Source of the DNA: a virus | Taxonomy: Duplodnaviria; Heunggongvirae; Uroviricota; Caudoviricetes | Reading direction: 5' to 3' (one strand) | IMG/VR virus record: IMGVR_UViG_2529292922_000010 | Length of the DNA: 64,000 nucleotides | In this document: piece after piece, positions 736 to 47,434 of the stretch | Layout of the letters: every line of letters starts with the position of its first letter | Position numbering within the stretch: the stretch's first letter is position 1 | Position numbers and translations under genes: made by a program | The notes under the pieces: model-generated | Told to the model about the DNA's origin: nothing | What the model saw: only the letters and a program-made list of their open reading frames with translations | Databases searched by the model: none

Positions 736-1779
736 TTATCTAACACTCGACGAATGACTTGTGATAGCGCCGACTCCAAGCGCGTAATCAAAGAACAATC
801 GTTGATGCATCGCCAGCCTACCGTGCGTCTTCTCCCAATTATCGCGGTCACGCTCAATATCACGCTGGCATGACTGGCACAGAGGAATAGCATAAATGTC
901 ATGCGCGCATAATCGACTATGACGAACGATATAAGGCGTAATGTGAGCGCCAGCTCCCGCAGCTCCACAGCCACAGCATGGACGGGAAGCCACAAAGTCC
1001 ATGTACTCGGGCAATTTTAGCGATTGAAGTTTTGGTATCTTGAAATGCGCCATACCTGGGTCGGAGTCAACATCCACAGGGCATACTTTTGCACGCATCG
1101 GCGCGGCGCGTTCTTCCATCATCTGAACATATGCTGTAGCGCGATCGTCATACGGGCGAATATCCGCCTCTTTCAGAGGTCCGCTATCCTGCGTTGCGGC
1201 TTTCATCTTATTTATTGATATACGGCAAACTTCTTCCGGCATCAGGTGCATCATGTTGCGCATGAAAGCCCACCAGCACAGTTCCTGAATACTTAAATCA
1301 TGGCCATCTGAAAGCCCCATTTCCTGACGGGCGACATCCAGTATCCAGTTAACGCGATTATTATGCAGCGTTTCTTTCAGCTCATTAAAACCACGCATCC
1401 GGTAATGGTTATCGTGATGCCAGCACAACAACACCGCGCTATTGTCTCGTTCTGCGTGGACAATATGGTTGTCACACCAGCTACGATCTGCGGCCTGGCA
1501 TTGCCCCTCTTTCCTGCGCAACCACGCCACCAGCGCGTCAATTCCACCAATACGGCGAAACAGTTCATCGCTGTTAAAAAACGGCTGCAACGCCTCATTT
1601 GTTGCCATAGTTTGCTCGGAAACAACGAGGCCGTCGTCCATGTGCTCGATTAACTCACGCGGCACCGGCTCCATAATAAATTTACGGCCAGCCTCCACCA
1701 GCTTTCTGACTTCCTGATCCACTTTGAATGTGGCGACGCCAAGCTCTTTTTGTACAAAGGGAGTAATTACGGCTTTCAC
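736..1779 (-). CDS. DUF968-like prophage protein, 347 aa
   Basis: Long ORF in same operon as doc; C-terminal Cys/His cluster (CCGCG...H...C..C..C) of the DUF968 pattern. Confidence 0.5.
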
Positions 1780-1806
1780 ATCACACCTTTCATCACTGAT
1801 TGGGCT

Positions 1807-1986
1807 TTATCTGCTGCCCGGCATTCTCTGTTTAAGCACAACCATTTCCTGACGGCATAACACAGCAATAGCAGTCCTGGCTCCAATTTGCTTACCAACC
1901 AGGTATTGCTTTACCTCGCGGCGACTCACGCCATCAAGAAGCATCTTTAACGCTTCACGGGACAATTTGTTGTATTTGCGTGCCAT
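1807..1986 (-). CDS. Small basic protein, 59 aa
   Basis: ATG at 1986 (MARKYNKLSREALKML...); sits between doc and the DUF968 gene; short, weak support. Confidence 0.35.
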   Translation of the reverse strand: MARKYNKLSREALKMLLDGVSRREVKQYLVGKQIGARTAIAVLCRQEMVVLKQRMPGSR

Positions 1987-1990
1987 TAAT

Positions 1991-2371
1991 CTACTCCGCA
2001 GAACCATACAATCTACGTAACGTGTCGGCGACAGAAGATACAGATATCTCGCCAGTCGCAGCGCCTACAGTAAGGTCTGCCAGTTCAGGTGAATCAAATA
2101 CCTGCACCCCGTTACGGCGTAGAAATAACAGCGCACTGTTTAGCGCGGTACGCTTATTGGCATCATTGAATATATGCCCTCTCGCTGTAGCCACCAGGTA
2201 GGTGGCGGAGACTTCGAAAAGGTCGGTGATCTCTTCGTAGGCAACTCTGGCCTGAACTCTCCCGATAATGGCCTCTGCCCTACCCGGATCTGACATTCCC
2301 GGCAGGCCGCCGTAGCGGTTTATATTCGCATCATGAAGCGCAATAAGTTCTTCCGGTGATATATGCCTCAT
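1991..2371 (-). CDS. doc: Doc toxin (Fic/Doc family) of a phd-doc addiction module
   Basis: 126 aa, [16 protein letters not shown]...; start overlaps phd stop by 1 nt (translational coupling). Confidence 0.9.
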
Positions 2372-2592
2372 TATCGGTTAACCAGTTCCTTATTGGTGGA
2401 TTCCAGGGTGTCAAACAGGGATGCAAATTCAGCATCCAGCGCCGCTTTTTTGTAGGCTTCGAAAGTAGCCTTGCTGACAATTACTGCTGGCTCACGGCCT
2501 CTGCGGGTGATTTCAACCTCTTCCCCGGCTTCAACATTGTTGAGCACTTCAGAAAGGTTGCCACGCGCGGTTCGGAAGTTAATGGATTGCAT
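2371..2592 (-). CDS. phd: Phd antitoxin (Phd/YefM family)
   Basis: 73 aa from ATG 2592 ([16 protein letters not shown]...); directly upstream of doc. Track ORF starts two codons earlier. Confidence 0.88.
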
Positions 2593-2664
2593 AAACACCT
2601 CGTGTACTCGTTATGTGTACACAATTATAAACTTCACAGGCATAAAGCACCAGCACTTTGCAGC

Positions 2665-3054
2665 TTAAATGACCGGACAATCATCAAATTCCCCACTTCG
2701 GGCATCATTGATGACATGAGTGATCACACCAAAAACAGCATTACTACCCGTGTAACCATCGTCATCTACTGGTAACGCCTCTTTCTTCCCGGTGCTTAAA
2801 TCCTCCAGGTGCTGGCGCGGATACTTCCTGTATCTCTTTATGCGATATTCACCCTCCATAGCGCACACAAGCAGCGAACCATCAACTGGAGTAAGCGAAG
2901 AATCAACCACCAGCAAAGCACCCTGCAATATTCCCTCACGGTGATGGCTATCAGCTGCCCGCATGAAGTAGGTTGCTGATGGATGTCTAATTATCTGCTG
3001 ATCAAGAGAAATTCGGCTTTCAACATAATCCGCCGCAGGAGAAGGGAAGCCCAT
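2665..3054 (-). CDS. humD: UmuD'-like S24 peptidase (HumD-type translesion polymerase accessory subunit)
   Basis: 129 aa beginning MGFPSPAADYVE, UmuD-type core; length corresponds to the pre-cleaved UmuD' form; SOS box 19 bp upstream. Confidence 0.85.
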   Translation of the reverse strand: MGFPSPAADYVESRISLDQQIIRHPSATYFMRAADSHHREGILQGALLVVDSSLTPVDGSLLVCAMEGEYRIKRYRKYPRQHLEDLSTGKKEALPVDDDGYTGSNAVFGVITHVINDARSGEFDDCPVI

Positions 3055-3072
3055 AGCGTTTTACCTCAAAAA

Positions 3073-3092
3073 TACTGTTTATCCGTACAGTA
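3073..3092. promoter_or_regulatory. LexA (SOS) box
   Basis: TACTGTTTATCCGTACAGTA = CTGT-N8-ACAG; in divergent promoter region between humD and the 3228 gene. Confidence 0.7.
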
Positions 3093-3227
3093 TACATTAA
3101 AGAAGCACCTTTGGTGCAAACGCGTTATGTACATCAACCACCGCAGATGATTTTGTGCGCTTTGCTACTATTCATCACCAACGGATCAGCGTAACCTCAT
3201 TGCCAATCAGTTAATAAGGAATTAGCT

Positions 3228-3800
3228 ATGCCTAATCGCATTCCTCTCGATCCTGTATTGCCCAAAAATTTTGACTGCACTCCTAACGAGAAACGCTCTA
3301 AAGCTCAGCTGGACGCCTGGTGGGACCATCCCTATGGGGTTACAGAACATGACGGGAAAATTGTTGTTTATTGTCTGAATGGTGGCGCGTGGGACCGTCC
3401 ATCCGTGCTGGGTTTGGCAAATAACTATGATGAAGCCTGTGAACTTGCCGAAAGACAGCAGGCTAGATGGGTAAAAACGCGGTCACAGCCGATATTTATG
3501 TACTCACAGGAACCTCCATTTGTGCTGGCGAGAATGCCGCAGCGACCGGATCATCAACAAGAAATTGTTGCTGAATTTTCCTCAATGGATGAGATGAATC
3601 TCTTCTCATTAAAGCAGGAAGAAAGGGATCGCGTCGAAGTGTCTCCAACTCTCGACCACAACCGGATGAACCTGGCCCAACTCGCCTGGTACAGCAAAGA
3701 ATTGGAGATGTCTATTGCCCGGCTTGAAAACGAAAAAGCCGCTATCCAAGCCCAGCATGAAGCTGTCATTGCCAGGATACGAGAAGTTCAAAACGGTTAA
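3228..3800 (+). CDS. Hypothetical protein, 190 aa, divergent from humD
   Basis: AAGGAA RBS; C-terminal coiled-coil-like segment; function unknown. Confidence 0.5.
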   Translation: MPNRIPLDPVLPKNFDCTPNEKRSKAQLDAWWDHPYGVTEHDGKIVVYCLNGGAWDRPSVLGLANNYDEACELAERQQARWVKTRSQPIFMYSQEPPFVLARMPQRPDHQQEIVAEFSSMDEMNLFSLKQEERDRVEVSPTLDHNRMNLAQLAWYSKELEMSIARLENEKAAIQAQHEAVIARIREVQNG

Positions 3801-3806
3801 CTACCG

Positions 3807-4058
3807 CTATTTCTTTACGGCATCATCTTTCTGATATGCCGGATCGCTCCCTTTTGGCAACTGGAGGCTTAACTGCCGGTAGTGTCGTAGCCGTTCCATG
3901 AAATAGGTGCGCAGATTCTCTGGTTGCTCGCGGGCTACCTGTTCAGCTATGACAGGTATGTTCAATCGCTCTTTGTACGCCACACCGCTGGCAGCCAGAT
4001 CAACGTTAACCTTATCCCGTTCTTCCTGACTTTTAGCTGCAATATTCCAGTCGCTCAT
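3807..4058 (-). CDS. hot: Homologue of DNA polymerase III theta subunit (HolE-like)
   Basis: 83 aa; [33 protein letters not shown] closely matches recalled E. coli HolE pattern. Confidence 0.8.
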
Positions 4059-4060
4059 AT

Positions 4061-4333
4061 TTAAGGCTCACATTTCCAGATGGTATTCTGAACACCCGAA
4101 CCGGGCGCTAGATGAGGGTTAGCGTTCGCGCTATGCTGATATACTGCTTTAGACTTCCCATATTGCTGACAGGCTTTATCTGCGGTTTTTTGCAGGCTAT
4201 CCAGGCCATACCAACCATCTGACTGTATGCTTACCTTTTCACCGTCGTTGTATTGCACCATTGCACACCCAGATATAGCCAGTATCGCGCCGACAATAAC
4301 GCTTTTCCATAAAACTCTATGCAACATAGACAA
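4061..4333 (-). CDS. Small lipoprotein, 90 aa
   Basis: Signal peptide with lipobox LAISGC. Confidence 0.5.
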
Positions 4334-4372
4334 AAATCCCCTCTGTGAATTGAGGGGATTTTAGCATGGTGA

Positions 4373-4633
4373 TCAGAGATCAGCTTTATGCAGAATTTTA
4401 TCCACCAGCGATGTGATTTTTTCTGCCAGGTCATCATTACTTACCCAATCCTGGCGGGCAGCCAGAACGGGCGACAAGGCTAATATTAACTCTCGTCGTA
4501 ATGATACGTTCCTTGCTACAGGCGGAATACGTGGTGCTGGTGGTGGTTTAAGCCCCTCGCTCCCTTGTATTTCTGGAGTATTCGGCTGATAGCCATTAGT
4601 TATTTTCGGCGGTATTGGACGAGGACGAAACAT
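4373..4633 (-). CDS. Pro-rich small protein, 86 aa
   Basis: ATG at 4633 with AGGAGG RBS 7 nt upstream; the longer track ORF (to 4753) lacks an RBS. Confidence 0.45.
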   Translation of the reverse strand: MFRPRPIPPKITNGYQPNTPEIQGSEGLKPPPAPRIPPVARNVSLRRELILALSPVLAARQDWVSNDDLAEKITSLVDKILHKADL

Positions 4634-4637
4634 CGCG

Positions 4638-4934
4638 CTACCTCCTACACTCAGGGCAGGTGTTCCCTTCCGCAAAGTAGGGGAAACTGCTATCAAGTTC
4701 ATCACACCATCTGCGATGCTCGTAGCACCAAAAAGCCTCCCACGGTAAACCAAAAGACTTCATCCACCGGGACACTCGATCTGGTATATCTGCTGGTGGC
4801 AGTTCTTCTGGCAATAATTTGCCTGATAATTCCCTTTCCGCCCGCGCCAGCATTCCTTTTAGACTCGCATTCTCTTTTTCAAGAATCTCTATGCGCGCCT
4901 GTAACTCAGCTTTCGTTGGCATGGCCCGCCTCAT
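4638..4934 (-). CDS. Hypothetical coiled-coil protein with C-terminal Cys cluster
   Basis: ELQARIEILEKENASLKGMLARAERE segment plus C...C...CPEC; start ambiguous (4922, 4934 or 5003). Confidence 0.4.
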   Translation of the reverse strand: MRRAMPTKAELQARIEILEKENASLKGMLARAERELSGKLLPEELPPADIPDRVSRWMKSFGLPWEAFWCYEHRRWCDELDSSFPYFAEGNTCPECRR

Positions 4935-5556
4935 GCTTATCAGCCACCAGCGGCAATAAAGCCCTGGCCATCTTATGAACCAATAGTGCATCAATAATGC
5001 CAAGCGTATGCCCCGGCTTAATGTTTAATGCCGCCTCAAGGTGACACCTTTCCAGGCCACTTTTCTCGGCTTGTTTATGATGATCTGGCGTAATAACGTC
5101 GCCCAAAACACGGCTAATTTTTTCTCGTAATTGCTGGGTGCCAGCACACTTGATCGCTGTATCGTGGATGCGGTTAACCAGTTCGCGATAAACATGCGGC
5201 TTAATTCGGATACGTTCACCGGTGACGCCCTTTCCTGGCGCTGGCACCGAACTATCCGGAATATCCGGATAGTTGCCAGCCTCGTAAGCTACCCGCAGCC
5301 AGTGCATGAATGTTTCAGTGGACACACAACCGCAGTCCACATCGATTTTCGCGCGTTGCTGTTCCAGCCACTGCTCAAAATTCAATCTACACGTATTACT
5401 TTCATGTTGCTCTTTTTGTCTCAAGGCCAGCATCTGCTGGGCTATTTCCAATACTTCATCTGCCGTATATCCAGCACCGTGACCATACATTTCGATACGG
5501 GAAATAATCTCTGATATACGCTCTTCAGTGATTCTGGTCATTTCTTTTTGCGCCAT
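4906..5556 (-). CDS. Hypothetical protein, 216 aa
   Basis: Long ORF; short overlaps with both neighbours indicate operon; no recognisable motif. Confidence 0.5.
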   Translation of the reverse strand: MAQKEMTRITEERISEIISRIEMYGHGAGYTADEVLEIAQQMLALRQKEQHESNTCRLNFEQWLEQQRAKIDVDCGCVSTETFMHWLRVAYEAGNYPDIPDSSVPAPGKGVTGERIRIKPHVYRELVNRIHDTAIKCAGTQQLREKISRVLGDVITPDHHKQAEKSGLERCHLEAALNIKPGHTLGIIDALLVHKMARALLPLVADKHEAGHANES

Positions 5557-22571: not shown

Positions 22572-23942
22572 TTAATAATCCTCTTGCCAGTCAGCACCAG
22601 CATAGTTATCAAACCGTGAGTATTGGCCGTTAAAAGCCAATCTCACCGTGCCAATTGGGCCATTTCGTTGCTTTCCGATAATTACCTCGGCAATGCCCTT
22701 CATTTCGCTATCCGGGTGATAAACTTCGTCGCGATACAGAAACATGATCAGGTCTGCGTCCTGCTCAATTGCTCCTGATTCACGTAAATCTGAATTTACC
22801 GGTCGTTTGTCCGCACGCTGTTCAAGCGATCGATTAAGTTGTGACAATGCCACCACCGGTACTTGTAATTCCTTCGCCAACGCCTTCAGTGAGCGAGAAA
22901 TCTCGGCAATTTCCAGCGTTCGGTTATCTTGCAGCTCGGGAACGCGCATAAGTTGCAGGTAGTCGATCATAATCATGCTCAAACCACCATTTTCTTTATA
23001 AACACGACGAGCGCGGGAACGAAGCTCTGTAGGTGTCAGGGCGCTTGAGTCATCAATAAAAATATTCTGCTTGTCCAACAGAATCCCCATTGCGCCAGAA
23101 ACCCGCGCCCAATCCTCGTCGTTAAGTTGCCCTGTTCGAATACGAGACTGATCAACGCGTGCAAGAGAAGCCAGTGAGCGCATCATCAGCTGGTGGCTCG
23201 GCATCTCAAGGCTAAAAACCAATACGGGCTTATCGTTACGGACTGCGGCATTTTCGACGAGATTCATCGCAAACGTAGTCTTCCCCATCGATGGGCGAGC
23301 GGCGACAATAATGAGATCGGACGCCTGAAGTCCTGCCGTCTTCTTATTGAGATCGGTAAATCCGGTATCAAGCCCCGTTACACCATCATGCGGTCGCTGA
23401 AAAAACTCTTCTATGCGAGATACCGTTGCATCGAGAATGCTGGCGATATCTTTTGGACCACTACCGCTCTTTTGTCGTTTTTCAGCTATTTCAAAAACGC
23501 GGCGCTCGGCCATATCCAGCAATTCATTGCTGCCCCGGCCATCCTGCGCATATCCAGCTTCGGCTATTTCATTTGCGACGGAAATCATTTCACGAACAAC
23601 CGCGCGTTCACGAACGATATCCGCATAAGCACAAATATTTGCCGCGCTGGGCGTGTTCTTTGACATCTCCGCAAGGTACGCAAAACCACCGGCGCGTTCT
23701 AATTTACCGTTCTGTTCAAGTGCTTCAGCAAGTGTTATCAAATCAATCGGTTTGCCATGACTTAATAACCTCTCCATCTCACTGAAAATTTCACGATGAG
23801 CACTGGTATAAAAATCATCAGCCACTATACGATCTGCAACTTCATCCCAGCGGCAGTTATCAAGCATTAAGCCACCAAGTACAGCTTGTTCTGCACTAAG
23901 GGAATTTGGCATGGATTCAAGAGGGGATGCAGACATTAACAC
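22572..23942 (-). CDS. ban: DnaB-family replicative helicase (Ban-type)
   Basis: 456 aa; Walker A ...SMGKTT..., DnaB C-terminal domain pattern. Confidence 0.9.
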   Translation of the reverse strand: MLMSASPLESMPNSLSAEQAVLGGLMLDNCRWDEVADRIVADDFYTSAHREIFSEMERLLSHGKPIDLITLAEALEQNGKLERAGGFAYLAEMSKNTPSAANICAYADIVRERAVVREMISVANEIAEAGYAQDGRGSNELLDMAERRVFEIAEKRQKSGSGPKDIASILDATVSRIEEFFQRPHDGVTGLDTGFTDLNKKTAGLQASDLIIVAARPSMGKTTFAMNLVENAAVRNDKPVLVFSLEMPSHQLMMRSLASLARVDQSRIRTGQLNDEDWARVSGAMGILLDKQNIFIDDSSALTPTELRSRARRVYKENGGLSMIMIDYLQLMRVPELQDNRTLEIAEISRSLKALAKELQVPVVALSQLNRSLEQRADKRPVNSDLRESGAIEQDADLIMFLYRDEVYHPDSEMKGIAEVIIGKQRNGPIGTVRLAFNGQYSRFDNYAGADWQEDY

Positions 23943-24217
23943 TCCACCCTGGTGTGCTGAATGTCAGATATAATCGGCATACTCAAATCACTCCTAACGA
24001 TATGAGTCATCACCAGAAAATCAGGATTAATGCGCCGGACTCTTCCCGGCTGTCACACCGAATCGCCAGGATGGTGAATCCGCAGTCCGACGCTATGAAC
24101 GGGGCTTGCACATTCCGGCTACCTGGTTTGTTGCCTGAGCTAGGGGAAAAGGTAACCCCTTTAACGTCACCAGACCGCTAACGACGCATGTGCCAGACGC
24201 CGTGTTACAACCAATTA

Positions 24218-24293
24218 TGGTGGCCCCTACCGGACTTGAACCGGTGACCGTGCGATTATGAGTCGCCAGCTCTAACCACTGAGCTAAAGGGCC
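24218..24293 (-). tRNA. tRNA-Ile (anticodon CAU, lysidine type); Met reading not excluded
   Basis: 76-nt cloverleaf ending CCA, anticodon loop CUCAUAA; very similar in form to E. coli ileX. Confidence 0.75.
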
Positions 24294-24320
24294 GGATTAC
24301 TGCCAATTTTGCTTACGCTT

Positions 24321-25148
24321 TTATTTCACCGGAACAAACGGAACAGCGGTATTACTGGTCATATACTGCGGTAATGTACCGTTCCATTTGTTGATCGCTT
24401 CCAACTCCATAACACCGGGGTTCTGGCGCAGAGCTTCACCACGTAAACGAATGGCATCAGCTTCGGCCTGGGCTTTTGTGCGAATAGCATCAGCCTGTCC
24501 GGCAGCTTCCGCGCGCAGCATGTTGGCCTCTGCTTCACGTTGTTTGACCTCTTGCTCGCGTTGCAGGGTTTTTTGGTTTGCCGTGACTTTGGCGTTAATA
24601 CTGTCAATAACTGTTGGCGGGTATTCTGGCTTACCTACATAAGAGAGGCTCATCACCTGAATGCCGATTGGCGTCATTTCTTCCTGAATGTCTTTAAGGG
24701 CTGCATCAAGCAATTCGGATTTGCCACCGTCGATAAATTTGTCGGTTGTCATTTTGCTGGCTAACCGGTTCAGAGCATCTGCAACCTTCTGGCGTAGATC
24801 GGTATCAGTAATATCATCTACACCTTTGCGATAGGTCTGAAATACCGTTGTGACTTTTGCTGGATCAACCTTGTAGGCTACGCCGATGTGGTAACCAATG
24901 GTTGTTCCGTCGCTCATCTGGAAGCTGAACGGCTCATCGTATGTCTTCATTTGCTTAAAGGTCGGGAAGATATAAACTTCAGTATTCAAGCCTGTCCAGT
25001 AGCGACCAACGCCAACTACTTCACCGATACCTTTATCATCCCCCAGCTTATTTACTTTGATCCCTACGTTACCTGGCTCTACCCGATCGCATCCGGTCAG
25101 ACATAAAGAACCCAAAATAATCGCTGCACTAATCAACGTTTTTTTCAT
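24321..25148 (-). CDS. plp: SPFH/band-7-like lipoprotein, 275 aa
   Basis: Signal peptide with lipobox LTGC; C-terminal coiled coil. Confidence 0.7.
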   Translation of the reverse strand: MKKTLISAAIILGSLCLTGCDRVEPGNVGIKVNKLGDDKGIGEVVGVGRYWTGLNTEVYIFPTFKQMKTYDEPFSFQMSDGTTIGYHIGVAYKVDPAKVTTVFQTYRKGVDDITDTDLRQKVADALNRLASKMTTDKFIDGGKSELLDAALKDIQEEMTPIGIQVMSLSYVGKPEYPPTVIDSINAKVTANQKTLQREQEVKQREAEANMLRAEAAGQADAIRTKAQAEADAIRLRGEALRQNPGVMELEAINKWNGTLPQYMTSNTAVPFVPVK

Positions 25149-25365
25149 TAATTAATTTCCTGGTTTTTTCACGAAAAAAGACTACTGCGAAAGCTGGGTA
25201 AATGAGCGCGAGAAGGACTCCCAACAATACAAGTATTGTGCTGTTAGATGAGATCATATTTGGCAAAAGCCAAACATACAGAACCAGTGACACAATCAAA
25301 CAGAGGACGGCATAAATATATAACCGCACCCATAGCGTTCGACATTTGTTCGGATTGTTCTGCAT
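25129..25365 (-). CDS. upl: Small two-TM membrane protein, 78 aa
   Basis: Overlaps plp start; position of P1 upl. Confidence 0.55.
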   Translation of the reverse strand: MQNNPNKCRTLWVRLYIYAVLCLIVSLVLYVWLLPNMISSNSTILVLLGVLLALIYPAFAVVFFREKTRKLINEKNVD

Positions 25366-25507
25366 CCTCTCACTCCATTATTTAACGAATAAAAAAGCTG
25401 CGGTGCTGGGTGCCTCCCGGTGTCCTTTGGCTGGTTATCCACCGTGGACGGGGAAACAAGGAGAAATGAATGGACTGATATAACCATTTCCCCGCGTGCG
25501 CTTAGCT

Positions 25508-25596
25508 GCATTCACCGCAACGGAAAGAGCATTCTTGGTGGACCTGTAGATTGGGATATGAACCCGTTACAGGAGAATGCTCTTACCTGTTACGTG
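25508..25596 (-). repeat. tRNA-linked hairpin element E1
   Basis: 13-bp outer stem enclosing GUAACGGGUUCAUAUCCCAAUCUAC core (T-arm-like); ends in CTTACCTGTTACGTG. Confidence 0.5.
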
Positions 25597-25768
25597 CTCC
25601 GTTTCGTGGAGCTAACGGCGGGTGATCGGGCCGCACCAGACTGGACTTATTTCAGCGTTATGCTCATGCCAGAGAATCAAACTGTGATGGTCGGTGCTGA
25701 ACTCCGACACAGGGTTGTAGCAAGCCCCGCAAAGCGCGCACTACTGTAGTTGCGGCACATCAGCCTGT

Positions 25769-25873
25769 GCATTCACCACAATGTTGAGAACACTGGTTGT
25801 CACGCTGCAACGCAACATTTATTCGTAGATTGGGATATGACCCCGTTACGCCAGTGTTCTCAACGTTGTAGTG
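25769..25873 (-). repeat. tRNA-linked hairpin element E2
   Basis: Different 14-bp outer stem (TTGAGAACACTGG/CCAGTGTTCTCAA) around the same core as E1. Confidence 0.5.
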
Positions 25874-26003
25874 CCGGTTACGGTTCCGGCCAGGCCTCTT
25901 CCTCAACGGGGTGTTCTCCATACGGACTACCGTTTATTGGTCGTTCCTGCGGTTTATGTTGTGAAGCCAGATGCTTATCTTCTGGTTGCTTCAAAGAGCT
26001 GCA

Positions 26004-26085
26004 CTTCATCACAACGGTAAGAGCACTCGATGCATTTAAGCCAAGCCCCATAAGGGAGAATGCCCTTACCTGTTGTGTTGTGATG
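26004..26085 (-). repeat. tRNA-linked hairpin element E3
   Basis: CATCACAACGGTAAG...CTTACCTGTTGTGTTGTGATG stem; different loop, no T-arm core. Confidence 0.45.
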
Positions 26086-26197
26086 ACCGGTGCTGATCTC
26101 CGGCTTGCGGTTATTTCAGACTCTCACGGGCGTTTAATTGCCCCGCCGAACAGCTCTTTTCCGCAATAGCTGCAATGTCTTTCGCGCATCAGCCTGC

Positions 26198-26292
26198 GCA
26201 TTCATCACAACGGTAAGGGTACTTCGTAGGGATTCGAACCCTCTGCCAAGCTCGGCGATCTCCGACGTCGCAAAATACCCTTACCTGTTGTG
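26198..26292 (-). repeat. tRNA-linked hairpin element E4 (tRNA-like, non-canonical)
   Basis: 10-bp stem GGTAAGGGTA/TACCCTTACC around AGGGTTCGAATCCCT (canonical T-loop); abuts 3' end of tRNA-Thr; does not fold as full cloverleaf. Confidence 0.5.
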
Positions 26293-26293
26293 C

Positions 26294-26369
26294 TGGTGCC
26301 GATTAACGGACTCGAACCGCTGACATCCTGCTTACAAGGCAGGCGCTCTACCAACTGAGCTAAACCGGC
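26294..26369 (-). tRNA. tRNA-Thr (anticodon UGU)
   Basis: 76 nt, canonical acceptor/D/T arms, ends CCA. Confidence 0.8.
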
Positions 26370-26371
26370 AT

Positions 26372-26447
26372 TGGCGATGGTGGATGGATTTGAACCATCG
26401 ACCCGTTGATTAACAGTCAACCGCTCTAACCGCTGAGCTACACCATC
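26372..26447 (-). tRNA. tRNA-Asn (anticodon GUU)
   Basis: 76 nt, 7-bp acceptor stem, ends CCA; 2 nt upstream of tRNA-Thr. Confidence 0.8.
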
Positions 26448-26912
26448 ACTTGCCGGGTACGTCTCCGGCGAGGGCTTCCACCTCCGTATGCTTTTCGGCG
26501 CACCGCGCCCTAGCTGCAATTCGGTAACAGGGGATGCACAACCCTGGCTTCCAGCGTGATTAGCGCCTTCAGCATGACGGGATATACCCGTAAATTCGTG
26601 GAACTGTACCCAAAGTGCTGTTAAGCACCGCTGTTACGCTGAAAAGAAGACGCAACAGGAAAGGACGCTGACCAACAGATGGCCCCTTCTCGTTCATCTG
26701 GTTAATCACACCAGCGCCCTTACCTGTTGTGCCTCCCCGTTCCCTAATACACAGACGGGGACACTCTGCGGTCGATTTTTTGACGGGGGACGACTCATAC
26801 CCCGTGGCGTCTGGCTTCTTAGGCCGCTACCATCATCAGATCATCGTTTGCATTTACTTTAATGGTCAGTTTTTAAACCGCCGCAAAGTCGCTAACCATG
26901 ACGAAAACCCTG

Positions 26913-26940
26913 AAAAAAAATGCCCACCCGAAGATGGGCA
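26913..26940 (-). terminator. Rho-independent terminator downstream of dmt
   Basis: Minus strand TGCCCA-loop-TGGGCA followed by U8. Confidence 0.6.
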
Positions 26941-27105
26941 AACTGGAAGCTCGTAACGCACTTCGGTGTTGCCACTTAGGCGTATGGTCAACCTGGCAAC
27001 TCGGCGTCATGATGGGGAAGGAGTCACTACCCCGCCATACTTGCCGCCGCGCCTGTCGCGGCTAACAGCTAAATCGCTCTATAAATCACGATTCATTGAG
27101 GCGAT

Positions 27106-27122
27106 ATTACACTAATAAATTT
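27106..27122 (+). promoter_or_regulatory. C1-repressor operator-like site (partner of overlapping pair)
   Basis: ATTACACTAATAAATTT (15/17); overlaps the minus-strand site by 6 bp. Confidence 0.5.
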
Positions 27123-27133
27123 ATTAGAGCAAT
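27117..27133 (-). promoter_or_regulatory. C1-repressor operator-like site, perfect consensus
   Basis: Minus strand ATTGCTCTAATAAATTT (17/17); overlaps dmt stop codon; faces the tRNA-ban block. Confidence 0.65.
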
Positions 27134-29547
27134 ACACCTAAAACGTCATGAGCTACACCTCGAGTATCCCCCTTACAAGACACAGAACGTCTGGCAAAAA
27201 GAGGTTCCACTCTGAAGCCACTGTCATGATAAAGCTCTCTGATATTTGGCGCGCCACTGTTAGTAATTAGAACCTTTGCACCTCGGCGATGAGCATCCGT
27301 CAACAGAGACACCAGGCGTTTTTGCTCTTCAAACTTAAAGTCATGACCGGAATAGTTCGTGAATCCCTCTGTATTTGGGAGCGGTTCATACGGCGGATCG
27401 CAAAAGATGACATCTCCTTCTCCGGCAGCTTCAATCACCGCAGCAAAATCACCACATACAAACTCAGAACGCCCTTCCGCACCAAGGAAGGCTCCCATCT
27501 CCTGCAATGGGAAATACGGAGTTTTATACTTCCCATAACCGACATTGAACTCACCGGCCTGGTTGTAACGCGTCAATCCGTTAAAACAATGTCGGTTCAG
27601 GAACAAAAACGCCGCTGCGCGATGTAAATCATCATAGACTTGTTTGTTAAACGCATTCCGTACTGCCAGGTATCCTTCCTGTGTGTTGTAGTCCTGGAAA
27701 AACCGATGTGCCAGTGTGATAAGTGAATGCGCCTCGCGTTGCAGAGTCTTGTAAAAGTTAATCAGGTCAGCATTCACATCATTTAGCAGATTTTCCTGGT
27801 ATCCGGCATTCATGAAGACAGCTCCGCCACCGACGAAAGGTTCAATCAGGCGCTTCCCTTCTGGCAAATAGCGAAAGATTTGTTCCAGAACACCAAATTT
27901 TCCACCAGCCCATTTGAATATGGACCGTTCGAATTCTGCCGCTGGTTTAACTTTTCGCTCTTTTGTTTCATTCCCTTCATTCTGCCGACATGCAGCCTTG
28001 GTAATCCGATCGCCAATCCAGCGCATTACTGGTATCGCCATACTATTGCCGATCGCTTTGTAACGCGGTCCGTCAGCTGCAAGCATCGCGGCCTCTTCTT
28101 CGCTTAAATCTGGATAGTGATTGCGAAGATATGCCAGTTCATCTGAATTAACTTTTTTACGCTTTTCCGTCGGGATCAACGTATGCACATCAGGAAAACC
28201 TTGCAGCCTTTCACATTCGATAGGGGTAAGACGGCGAACACTCATCATATGAGGTAAGTAACCATTATCACCTAATTCGCCTTTTTCAATACTTTTCTGC
28301 CCCCCAAAAGATAACGCAACGGCGTCAGCTGTAGCGCGGGAATCAAGAGTAAAACTTATCTCTTTTTGCCACCCTTTACCCTGCGGTCCAGCATCATCTT
28401 TTCGCCCAATTTGTGCATGTTGTAGCGAATACGCAACAGCTGGTGGGCATCCCGCGTTTTGATTGCTATTAGCAGAGTTACCAGCTCGTAAAGTTGGGGA
28501 AATCTCAACACCCGCATCCTGCCCATAATTTTTGCTTGTAAACGCAATAGTTTTCTTGCAAGAAAACACAATTGGAGCTTCATGATTACAAGTAAGAGTA
28601 GGTGATGTCCCATCATTTTTTATTTCTGCCCCCCCTTGCCCATGCGCCATGCAATACACAAGTCCGCTGCCTCGCTGCGCAAAAATCTCCTGGTTACTTG
28701 CACCGATCCCACCAGTATTGTGTGACTGGTTAAGTGTCGGGTGAGGATTTACAGGGTTATCCCAATGGCTCCCGCTTTTAATGCCATTTCCAACATTTCC
28801 GGCAACTTCCTTCCCCTCGCCTCTGCTCGGCGCAATATTCCGGCGCACGCCTTCGAACTCAAAAAGTACCGTTGCGGGATCGAGGTCTGTTCGAGCACTT
28901 GCGACAACAAACACGCGTCGGCGTCGTTGTGCCACTCCGAAGTATTGGGCATCAAGGATTCTCCAGGCCACCTTTCGCTGCGGTCCATAAATACAACCAC
29001 ACTGCGGCCACTTTGGAACATGGCAACCGGTTTTGCCATCCCACCGCCAGAACGCGTTGCTTTTTCCTGATTCAGGTCGATCACCTGGTTCAAATGGCAC
29101 ATCTTCTCCAGCCAATCCGGCAAGGAAACATCCGAAGGCGTTATCTGCCGATGACAAGACTCCTGGGACATTTTCCCAGACGATAACGGCTGGTTTGAGA
29201 AATGACTCAGCCCGTTTGTCGTCAATTGCATTTGCAAGCTCCACATACTTTAAAGTTAGCGCGCCACGCTCATCATCAAGCCCACCACCTAATCCCGCAA
29301 TACTGAATGCCTGACAAGGTGTTCCCCCGACGAGCACATCAGGGGATTCGATTTCCCCAGCCAAGACTTTTTGGGCAAGTTTTGTCATGTCGCCAAGGTT
29401 GGCGACATGGGGCCAGCGGTGCGCAAGAACGGCAGATGGAAAAGGCTCGATTTCAGCAAACCACGCCGGACGCATACCCAACGGTTCCCAAGCAATACTC
29501 GCGGCTTCAATTCCACTGCAAACAGATCCATAGCACAGCTCTTTCAC
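27124..29547 (-). CDS. dmt: Bifunctional DNA methyltransferase (C5-cytosine + Dam-like N6-adenine)
   Basis: 807 aa; N-terminal GTPCQAFS and ENV motifs; C-terminal FVGGGAVF and DPPY motifs. Confidence 0.85.
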
Positions 29548-30449
29548 TGTTTAGCCTCTCCACCAAGGGCATTTACCAGAGCATCAACCAGGCACGAAAT
29601 TTCACTGGTCAACAGGAAGAAATCTGCGTCCAGTCGCTGCGCAACATCTTCACTATCAATATCAGAGTTCTGCTCAAGCAATTCATCCGCAAATTTGACG
29701 CTGGTAAGGCTGAAGTTATGGTCCAGTGTAAATTTAATGCGGTTCTGCCAGTCGAGTGCCAACTTAGTGACGAGCTTGCCAGCTTCCAGGTGTGTGGAAA
29801 TTTCATCGCTTCCCAAATCCTGCTTTTTCACCCGGGCAATACCGCCATCCTCAAGCACTGCCTTAAGTTCTGCCGCATCCCCCATTTGAAATCCCTGTGG
29901 AGCACTACCATCACGTACCCAGTCGGTCAGCGTTAATTCAATGGGATTTTCAACACTCAGGGGAACAACAGGAAGAGAACCCAGAGACTTACGCATAAGC
30001 GCGAGCATATCCTCTGCCTGCCGCGCGCTGGCATTGATATAGATACGTTTAGTTGAACCGTCGTAGATCGCCTGGATAACAGAAAACTTTGAAAAAGCCC
30101 GTGGCAGAAGAGAATGCAGAACTTCGTCTTTCAGGGAGTCCTTCTCTGTTTTCTTCAGTTTACGCGCTTGTTCTTGCTCAAGTTTTTCAATTTTTTCTTG
30201 AATAGCTCGCTGGATAACCGGCGGGGGAAGAATTTTTGTTTCGCGCTTTGCTTCAACAAGGATAAAACCATTTCCATGCATAGCGATAACTTCGGAATTA
30301 TCACCAAATGGAGATACAAAACCGAACTTGGCCATATCCTGACTACCGCATGGCGTGAAAAGGATCATTTTCTTTTTATCTTCTAAGTCGGTCAGATCCG
30401 CCTCACGAGAAAGTTTATAAATAGTAATGTTTTTCCAGTGCTTAAACAT
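29544..30449 (-). CDS. hrdC: RdgC-like recombination-associated protein
   Basis: ATG 30449 ([13 protein letters not shown]...); [13 protein letters not shown] and overall pattern of E. coli RdgC; track ORF extends further upstream. Confidence 0.8.
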
Positions 30450-30798
30450 GTTGTAACCCTTGAATATCAACCACAGAAAGCTCGTCTTTGTAGAAAAAGG
30501 CCAGGTTGTGGCACCCCCTCGTTTGAGCGTATGAGCTGGGACCAATTTCGTTCTTCCAGACAAATGGCTTCAAATCCGTACGGCGAAGCATAAAAACGCG
30601 ATTTGTTCCGCTCTGATTCCCAATGAGGCAAAAGCCTTCTTTCACCTTGATAGCCTGCAAGTTGTCGAGTTCACCGCTGGTTACACGGCTATCGAACTCT
30701 TTGCGGCTTATTAGCTCCATCTGCATCTGACGACTCCAAACAAATGCCCATTGAAGGGCGATGGCTGAATGGTACCGAAAATACGACATAAAAAACAA
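30442..30798 (-). CDS. uhr: Hypothetical protein upstream of hrdC, 118 aa
   Basis: Stop overlaps hrdC start; operator overlaps its start codon; no RBS. Confidence 0.45.
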
Positions 30799-30814
30799 TA
30801 TTTATTAGAGCAAT
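30798..30814 (-). promoter_or_regulatory. C1-repressor operator-like site
   Basis: Minus strand ATTGCTCTAATAAATAT (16/17). Confidence 0.55.
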
Positions 30815-45752: not shown

Positions 45753-45769
45753 AAATTTATTAGAGCAAA
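45753..45769 (-). promoter_or_regulatory. C1-repressor operator-like site upstream of kilA-repL
   Basis: Minus strand TTTGCTCTAATAAATTT (16/17). Confidence 0.6.
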
Positions 45770-47417: not shown

Positions 47418-47434
47418 AAATCTATTAGAGCATT
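47418..47434 (-). promoter_or_regulatory. C1-repressor operator-like site at head of immI region
   Basis: Minus strand AATGCTCTAATAGATTT (15/17). Confidence 0.5.

Follow-up and report, generated by a model that had tools for sequence, protein, structure and literature searches.

The dmt gene of a P1-like phage-plasmid: a predicted fused C5-cytosine/N6-adenine methyltransferase whose stop codon lies within a C1-type operator

The 64,000-nt stretch of viral DNA analyzed here (the window) very probably belongs to a P1-like (Punavirus) phage-plasmid, in which the long minus-strand open reading frame at 27124..29547 is dmt, the last gene of a C1-repressed uhr-hrdC-dmt operon. As judged from its domains and motifs, the product, Dmt, is a single polypeptide comprising two independent DNA methyltransferases, a C5-cytosine enzyme followed by a Dam-type N6-adenine enzyme, and the 3′ end of its gene falls inside a perfect match to the operator consensus of the phage P1 C1 repressor. 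The two-domain Dmt and the overlap of its 3′ end with the ban operator are already public for P1 and P7, and the allele of dmt carried by the window is already deposited for Salmonella phage SJ46.

dmt is the single long reading frame in its region and encodes 807 aa plus a stop codon. Its GTG start shares 4 nt with the stop codon of hrdC as GTGA, and start/stop overlaps of this type are a customary mark of translational coupling. The first-pass annotation of this DNA had placed the left end of the reading frame at 27106; the frame ends at 27124, and 27106 is the end of a partner operator on the plus strand (27106-27122). The 4.2 kb surrounding the reading frame are 97–98% identical to SJ46, P1, P7, RCS47 and further Punavirus records, all of which annotate dmt (or dam), hrdC/rdgC and uhr at the homologous place. 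Within dmt itself, the DNA outside a central segment shows 97–98% identity to the dmt genes of SJ46, P1 and P7. P1 Dmt (AAQ14041, AF234172) and P7 Dam (AAQ07538) share with the window protein the uhr-hrdC-dmt position, the order of the two domains and the GTGA coupling. SJ46 Dmt (AMR60040) has the same length, 807 aa, and a central segment 100% identical in DNA; it differs from the window by few substitutions elsewhere (97.5% identity over the region) and by an ATG rather than a GTG start. The Dam-coding 3′ end of dmt, along with 67 bp of downstream DNA, operator included, was found in approximately 466 PLSDB plasmids (query 27060-27900, coverage of 80% or higher), nearly all of them non-mobilizable, from Escherichia or Salmonella, and approximately 90–100 kb in size.

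The reading frame had been proposed, from its letters alone, to encode an 807-aa fused C5-cytosine/N6-adenine methyltransferase with C5 motifs toward the N-terminus and Dam-like motifs toward the C-terminus. Pfam, NCBIfam, matches to solved structures and direct motif searches all support both domains in that order, with the C5 enzyme forming the N-terminal two thirds and the Dam-type enzyme residues 540-807; Pfam annotation returned PF00145 and PF02086 rather than one methyltransferase domain only. The Dam-type domain (D12 class; aa 540-807, 27127..27930, minus strand) matches PF02086 (D12 N6-adenine methylase) over residues 546-778 (E = 8.4e-56, 189.9 bits), the dam family TIGR00571 (247.5 bits, cut-off 114.85) and, over residues 540-803, solved structures of E. 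coli Dam (2g1p; E = 5e-57), and it carries FVGGG (571-575) and DPPY (717-720) in that order. Against the host Dam equivalog model NF008152, Dmt scores 243 bits, under the 441-bit cut-off, and its Dam half is thus not the host enzyme itself. Residues 435-807, which span the end of the C5 enzyme and the whole Dam half, are 97% identical to P1 Dmt, described in its record (AF234172) as a ‘bifunctional DNA methyltransferase’ acting on N6 of adenine in GATC and ‘perhaps’ on C5 of cytosine; because of this identity, we infer GATC specificity for the Dam half of the window protein as well. In P1, methylation of GATC by Dmt/Dam is needed for pac cleavage and hence for packaging (PMC12707154, PMC7253447, PMC11437467). 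P7 has a predicted late promoter, LPdam2, inside its dam gene, and a counterpart with three mismatches lies at 28136-28154 in the window.

The C5 enzyme is encoded in two conserved parts on the minus strand: an N-terminal catalytic core (aa 1-235, 28843..29547) with motifs I, IV, VI and VIII, and a C-terminal part (aa 435-530, 27958..28245) with motifs IX and X. PF00145 (C5 DNA methylase) matches N-terminally in two stretches (E = 2.3e-35; 123 bits, cut-off 22), the dcm family TIGR00675 matches at 109.5 bits (cut-off 100.65), and the structure of M.HhaI matches residues 28-131 (E = 3e-8). The AdoMet motif I takes the form of a subfamily variant, GSVCSG (7-12), and direct motif searches located motif IV as GTPCQ (75-79, with the catalytic cysteine C78), VI as ENV (125-127), VIII as QRRRR (207-211), IX as RRLTPIE (438-444) and X as GNS (500-502). 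On the strength of these motifs the N-terminal C5 enzyme is predicted to be catalytically intact, and we infer that it methylates cytosine to give m5C.

Comparison among alleles adds a further feature at the catalytic site. In many sister alleles, an intein of 341 aa lies between P77 and the catalytic C78; it begins with CFTAGH and ends with VVHN followed by Cys, and it combines Hint and LAGLIDADG domains with two LAGLIDADG-like motifs. Three kinds of allele correspond to an intein-free allele plus 341 aa: one of 1013 aa, one of 1148 aa that is the window type plus the intein, and the 1095-aa gene of RCS47. The 1013-aa alleles are the most numerous of the protein-database entries and include that of a laboratory P1 isolate (OP279344). 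In the window, the codons for P77 and C78 (29314..29319, minus strand) are uninterrupted. Literature searches found no mention of a Dmt intein. dmt may be a gene into which this intein homes at the catalytic residue, with the window carrying an empty site.

The C5 half might nonetheless be a decayed, non-functional remnant, leaving Dmt to act as a Dam enzyme alone. We found no report of m5C activity for any Dmt allele in literature searches, the P1 record hedges on this activity, and in the reference sequence of laboratory P1 the otherwise invariant G74 beside the catalytic TPCQ is changed to W74; the window protein retains G74. Moreover, m5C in DNA is the target of McrBC-type restriction, to which a phage modified in this way would be left open. 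Against decay, the six diagnostic motifs are all intact in the window protein, and the C5 core is invariant at most positions in an alignment of ten alleles. Comparison with P7 gives the core a dN/dS of 0.10, and comparison with a divergent relative 0.14, the level of the functional Dam domain (0.11 against P7), so that purifying selection on the two is equally strong. The intein, furthermore, sits exactly at the catalytic cysteine, and such placement is typical of functionally constrained sites. Decay is hence unlikely. A functional C5 half is the reading we prefer, on the indirect argument that all of its motifs are intact and that its dN/dS matches that of the functional Dam domain; it would most probably place 5-methylcytosine on replicating phage DNA, with protection against restriction as the expected consequence.

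Between motifs VIII and IX, the interval that holds the target recognition domain in C5 methyltransferases, Dmt alleles diverge sharply. In the window this presumed target recognition region covers aa 241-434 (28246..28827, minus strand) and is of the SJ46 type. P1 Dmt is 90% identical to the window protein over aa 1-265, the identity being higher over aa 1-240 and lost after approximately aa 240, and the 194 residues of the window are then replaced in P1 by 141 unrelated residues (754 aa in total) and in P7 by approximately 60 (672 aa). SJ46 is the only phage record with the central segment of the window. Among the approximately 466 dmt-bearing PLSDB plasmids, the SJ46-type region is complete in just 15 and is hence a rarer allele, while others share 79%, 49% or 29% of the region, in blocks. 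Dmt alleles in the protein database have lengths of 672, 710, 754, 768, 807, 822, 856, 862, 870, 1013 and 1148 aa; when aligned, they have a common catalytic core and differ by blocks present or absent in the variable region. Literature searches returned nothing relevant on the diversity of dmt alleles.

This pattern is open to two readings, of which the first takes the region as one large target recognition domain with a single specificity rather than a string of modules. Four segments were delimited in the window protein (a, 241-300; b, 301-333; c, 334-385; d, 386-434), each with one xTL motif (HPTL, SPTL, SPTL and SFTL, respectively). Motifs of this kind also occur outside recognition domains, and an AlphaFold2 model of full-length Dmt built with nine sequences was unusable for domain arrangement and uninformative on this point (mean pLDDT 33, pTM 0.28), both of which leave room for a single domain. 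The distribution of the segments points the other way. Across 150 representatives of the wider C5 family (29,078 members at an E-value of 0.001 or better), each of them with the N-terminal core, 11 different combinations of the segments were seen, apart from proteins with no segment, and the order was inverted in some. The commonest combinations are c alone (43 representatives), a alone (20) and b alone (14); a with c, b with c, c with d, a with b and others are seen in smaller numbers. Additionally, the P7-type allele of 672 aa, with little beyond module b, is the commonest backbone. The 102 proteins with a delimitable region (101 representatives and that of the window) have more xT[LVI] motifs the longer this region is, from approximately 1.5–1.8 up to 3.9, and the total of 266 motifs is about double the 122 expected from shuffles.

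A single large domain nevertheless keeps close to an even chance. The pattern of module combinations and the motif counts are as expected for tandem exchangeable recognition modules, and four modules that assort independently tentatively point to a multispecific enzyme of the Bacillus phage kind. In Bacillus phages, such C5 enzymes have tandem recognition domains (PMC8936443). The multispecific enzymes of SPR, phi3T, rho11s and H2 are, like the window protein, phage-borne orphans with a long motif VIII–IX region, in which what look like short modules are present or absent while the catalytic core is untouched. The resemblance is one of layout, and the window enzyme differs in being fused to a Dam domain. 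We tentatively propose, at somewhat less than even confidence, that the C5 half of Dmt may be a multispecific m5C enzyme of modular build, with cassettes shuffled among P1-like phage-plasmids and the larger C5 family and each allele guarding against a different set of restriction systems.

At its other end, dmt runs into the control region of the next operon. The gene ends GGT GTA TTG CTC TAA TAA ATT T, and the third base of V804, L805, L806, the stop codon (27124-27126) and a second in-frame TAA (27121-27123) all lie within Op72a (Obana; 27117-27133, minus strand). Op72a reads ATTGCTCTAATAAATTT, which we take to be the asymmetric 17-bp consensus of the P1 C1-repressor operator, in agreement with the annotation of AF234172; it matches at 17 of 17 positions and is the sole perfect copy in the window. 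A second operator in inverted orientation, Op72b (Obanb; 27106..27122, plus strand), matches at 15 of 17 positions and overlaps Op72a by 6 bp (AAATTT), the two jointly forming a 28-bp near-palindrome, ATTGCTCTAATAAATTTATTAGTGTAAT. The promoter P1ban (27104..27132, minus strand), with its coordinates carried over from AF234172 across identical DNA, has a -35 element TTGCTC (27127-27132) within Op72a, a 17-nt spacer and a -10 element TAATAT (27104-27109). The P1 record annotates a ‘divalent C1-controlled operator Obanab’, formerly Op72ab, that ‘controls expression of ban’, and a sigma-70 promoter P1ban, the -35 of which falls in the final codons of dmt and the -10 in Op72b. The operator and promoter stretch of the window is base-for-base identical to P1: the 28-bp sequence, its orientation, the 6-bp overlap and the placement with respect to dmt and the ban leader are the same, and no difference in the operator was detected. 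In P1 and P7 the stop codon overlaps Op72a just as in the window, and the P7 record annotates the same operator and promoter layout, overlapping the 3′ end of dam. Hence the earlier claim that the last codons and stop of dmt fall within a perfect operator at 27117-27133, read directly from the sequence, is correct to the base, and its corollary that this operator serves both as coding sequence and as control region of the next operon agrees with the annotation of the identical P1 Op72a/b as the control of ban.

An operator so short and AT-rich might in principle match by chance and have no regulatory role, and a generic sigma-70 scan of 26400-27400 called no promoter, P1ban included, a miss attributable to its weak -35 element (3/6). 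Such a coincidence is highly improbable: the window has 10 matches to the C1 operator at three or fewer mismatches against 0.29 expected, a number reached in 0 of 100 shuffles; Op72a and its inverted partner reproduce the exact geometry of P1 Op72ab, and their sequence is that of the operators annotated in P1 and P7; and the Dam-domain 3′ end and the operator-bearing DNA downstream of it are conserved in the 466 plasmids. From the identity with P1, for which the annotation of AF234172 reflects experimental literature, C1 binding and repression of ban in the lysogen, as well as promoter activity, are predicted for this stretch.

The operator lies between two operons of the minus strand. Upstream, the uhr-hrdC-dmt operon would be driven by Pdmt (-35 at 30793-30798), just upstream of which lies the C1 operator Op68 (Odmt; 30798..30814, minus strand, 16/17), and the DNA of Op68 and Pdmt is conserved relative to the P1 annotation. 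The first gene is uhr (30442..30726), followed by hrdC of the RdgC family (29544..30449), which adjoins dmt with the 4-nt overlap. Downstream, the ban operon (21574..27103), transcribed from P1ban, comprises a leader with a terminator-like hairpin (26921-26940), tRNA-Asn (26372-26447), tRNA-Thr (26294-26369), an SPFH/Band-7 lipoprotein gene (24321-25148), a tRNA with a CAT anticodon (24218-24293), ban, encoding a DnaB-like helicase (22572-23942), and dbn (21574-22572). Its arrangement is of the RCS47 type, the lipoprotein gene replacing tciABC of P1. A DicF gene in the stretch for which P1 annotates a ‘dicF-like region’ was considered and rejected, since an Rfam scan of 24000-27300 gave three tRNAs only, with other matches far under gathering scores and nothing matching DicF there.

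Taken together, these elements suggest how the locus may be switched. In the lysogen, C1 at Op68 would silence uhr-hrdC-dmt, and C1 bound at Op72ab would occlude both the -35 of P1ban, which is formed by codons L805-L806, and its -10, keeping the downstream tRNA-ban-dbn operon off. With its stop codon placed within P1ban, dmt leaves no room for a terminator ahead of the next operon; once repression is lifted, transcripts begun at Pdmt would therefore be expected to continue into the ban operon. The Dam half would then methylate GATC, a step on which pac cleavage and thereby packaging depend in P1.

The overlap could conceivably be intrinsic to the Dmt family as a whole, a possibility rejected by a divergent relative at the P0006 locus. 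Its C5 core is 97% identical to that of the window protein and its Dam half 70%, and it ends at the equivalent residue (IIAIMK*). A GC-rich hairpin and a T-run, judged by eye to be a terminator, follow the gene, and no C1-type operator was found within 8.6 kb. The stop/operator overlap is thus constant in the P1 lineage, for which it has been described before, and is not a trait of the protein family.

In practice, the locus serves as a landmark by which the window can be recognized as that of a P1-like phage-plasmid, and it sets the border between the dmt and ban operons. For C5 activity, the intein lodged at the catalytic residue may offer a natural on/off marker. If the cassettes of the variable region are indeed exchangeable, the host restriction systems that a P1-like plasmid can evade would be predictable from its dmt allele. 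Many P1-like plasmids carry resistance genes, and such a link would be relevant for studies of anti-restriction and of phage-plasmid evolution.

The central segment of the dmt gene (28246-28827), which encodes a C5-cytosine methyltransferase joined to a Dam-type N6-adenine methyltransferase, is a mosaic of four modules. These modules assort independently among P1-family alleles, and the same independent assortment was seen when 150 proteins representing a C5 methyltransferase family of 29,078 members were compared. The full set of modules found in the window was shared only with Salmonella phage SJ46 and 15 PLSDB plasmids. At a further locus, L003 3001-7323 (JBIHCQ010000003, a 92.8-kb contig), the encoded Dmt had 97% identity to that of the window in the C5 core but only 70% in the Dam half. 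The L003 element is a divergent, P1-like one with a recombinant Dmt. In place of the ban operator, a convergent glutaminyl-tRNA-synthetase-like gene follows Dmt in L003.

The ban operon downstream of dmt differs in content from that of P1. Where P1 has tciA-tciB-tciC, the window carries a minus-strand gene for a 275-aa SPFH/Band-7 lipoprotein (24321-25148), an arrangement shared with the P1-like relative RCS47, whose copy bears the annotation "putative serine protease." In the ban leader, a terminator-like hairpin with a GC-rich stem and a T run (26921-26940, minus strand) lies between the promoter P1ban and the tRNA-Asn/tRNA-Thr pair, and suggests attenuation or processing upstream of the tRNAs. 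No Rfam match to DicF was found in the window stretch corresponding to the dicF-like region annotated in P1. Elsewhere in the window, seven more sites resembling the operator of the C1 repressor, with 1-3 mismatches each (718-734, 10921-10937, 13014-13030, 13063-13079, 16687-16703, 45753-45769, and 47418-47434), are presumably counterparts of the remaining P1 operators.

Many sister dmt alleles contain a 341-aa intein with Hint and LAGLIDADG domains, inserted exactly before the catalytic cysteine in C5 motif IV; the window allele has an empty site (29314-29319, codons P77/C78). Intein-bearing alleles are 1013, 1095, and 1148 aa long and include those of RCS47 and the laboratory P1 isolate OP279344; among the comparison loci, such alleles lie at L004 and L005 (both 1501-4947) and L007 (721-3762). 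We found no publication on a dmt intein. Residue 74, which immediately adjoins the catalytic cysteine, is glycine (VGGTPCQ) in the window dmt, the other eight aligned alleles, SJ46, and MH422554, and tryptophan (VWGTPCQ) in the reference laboratory P1 (AF234172). A tryptophan at this position might weaken C5 methylation by Dmt in the classical P1 strain.
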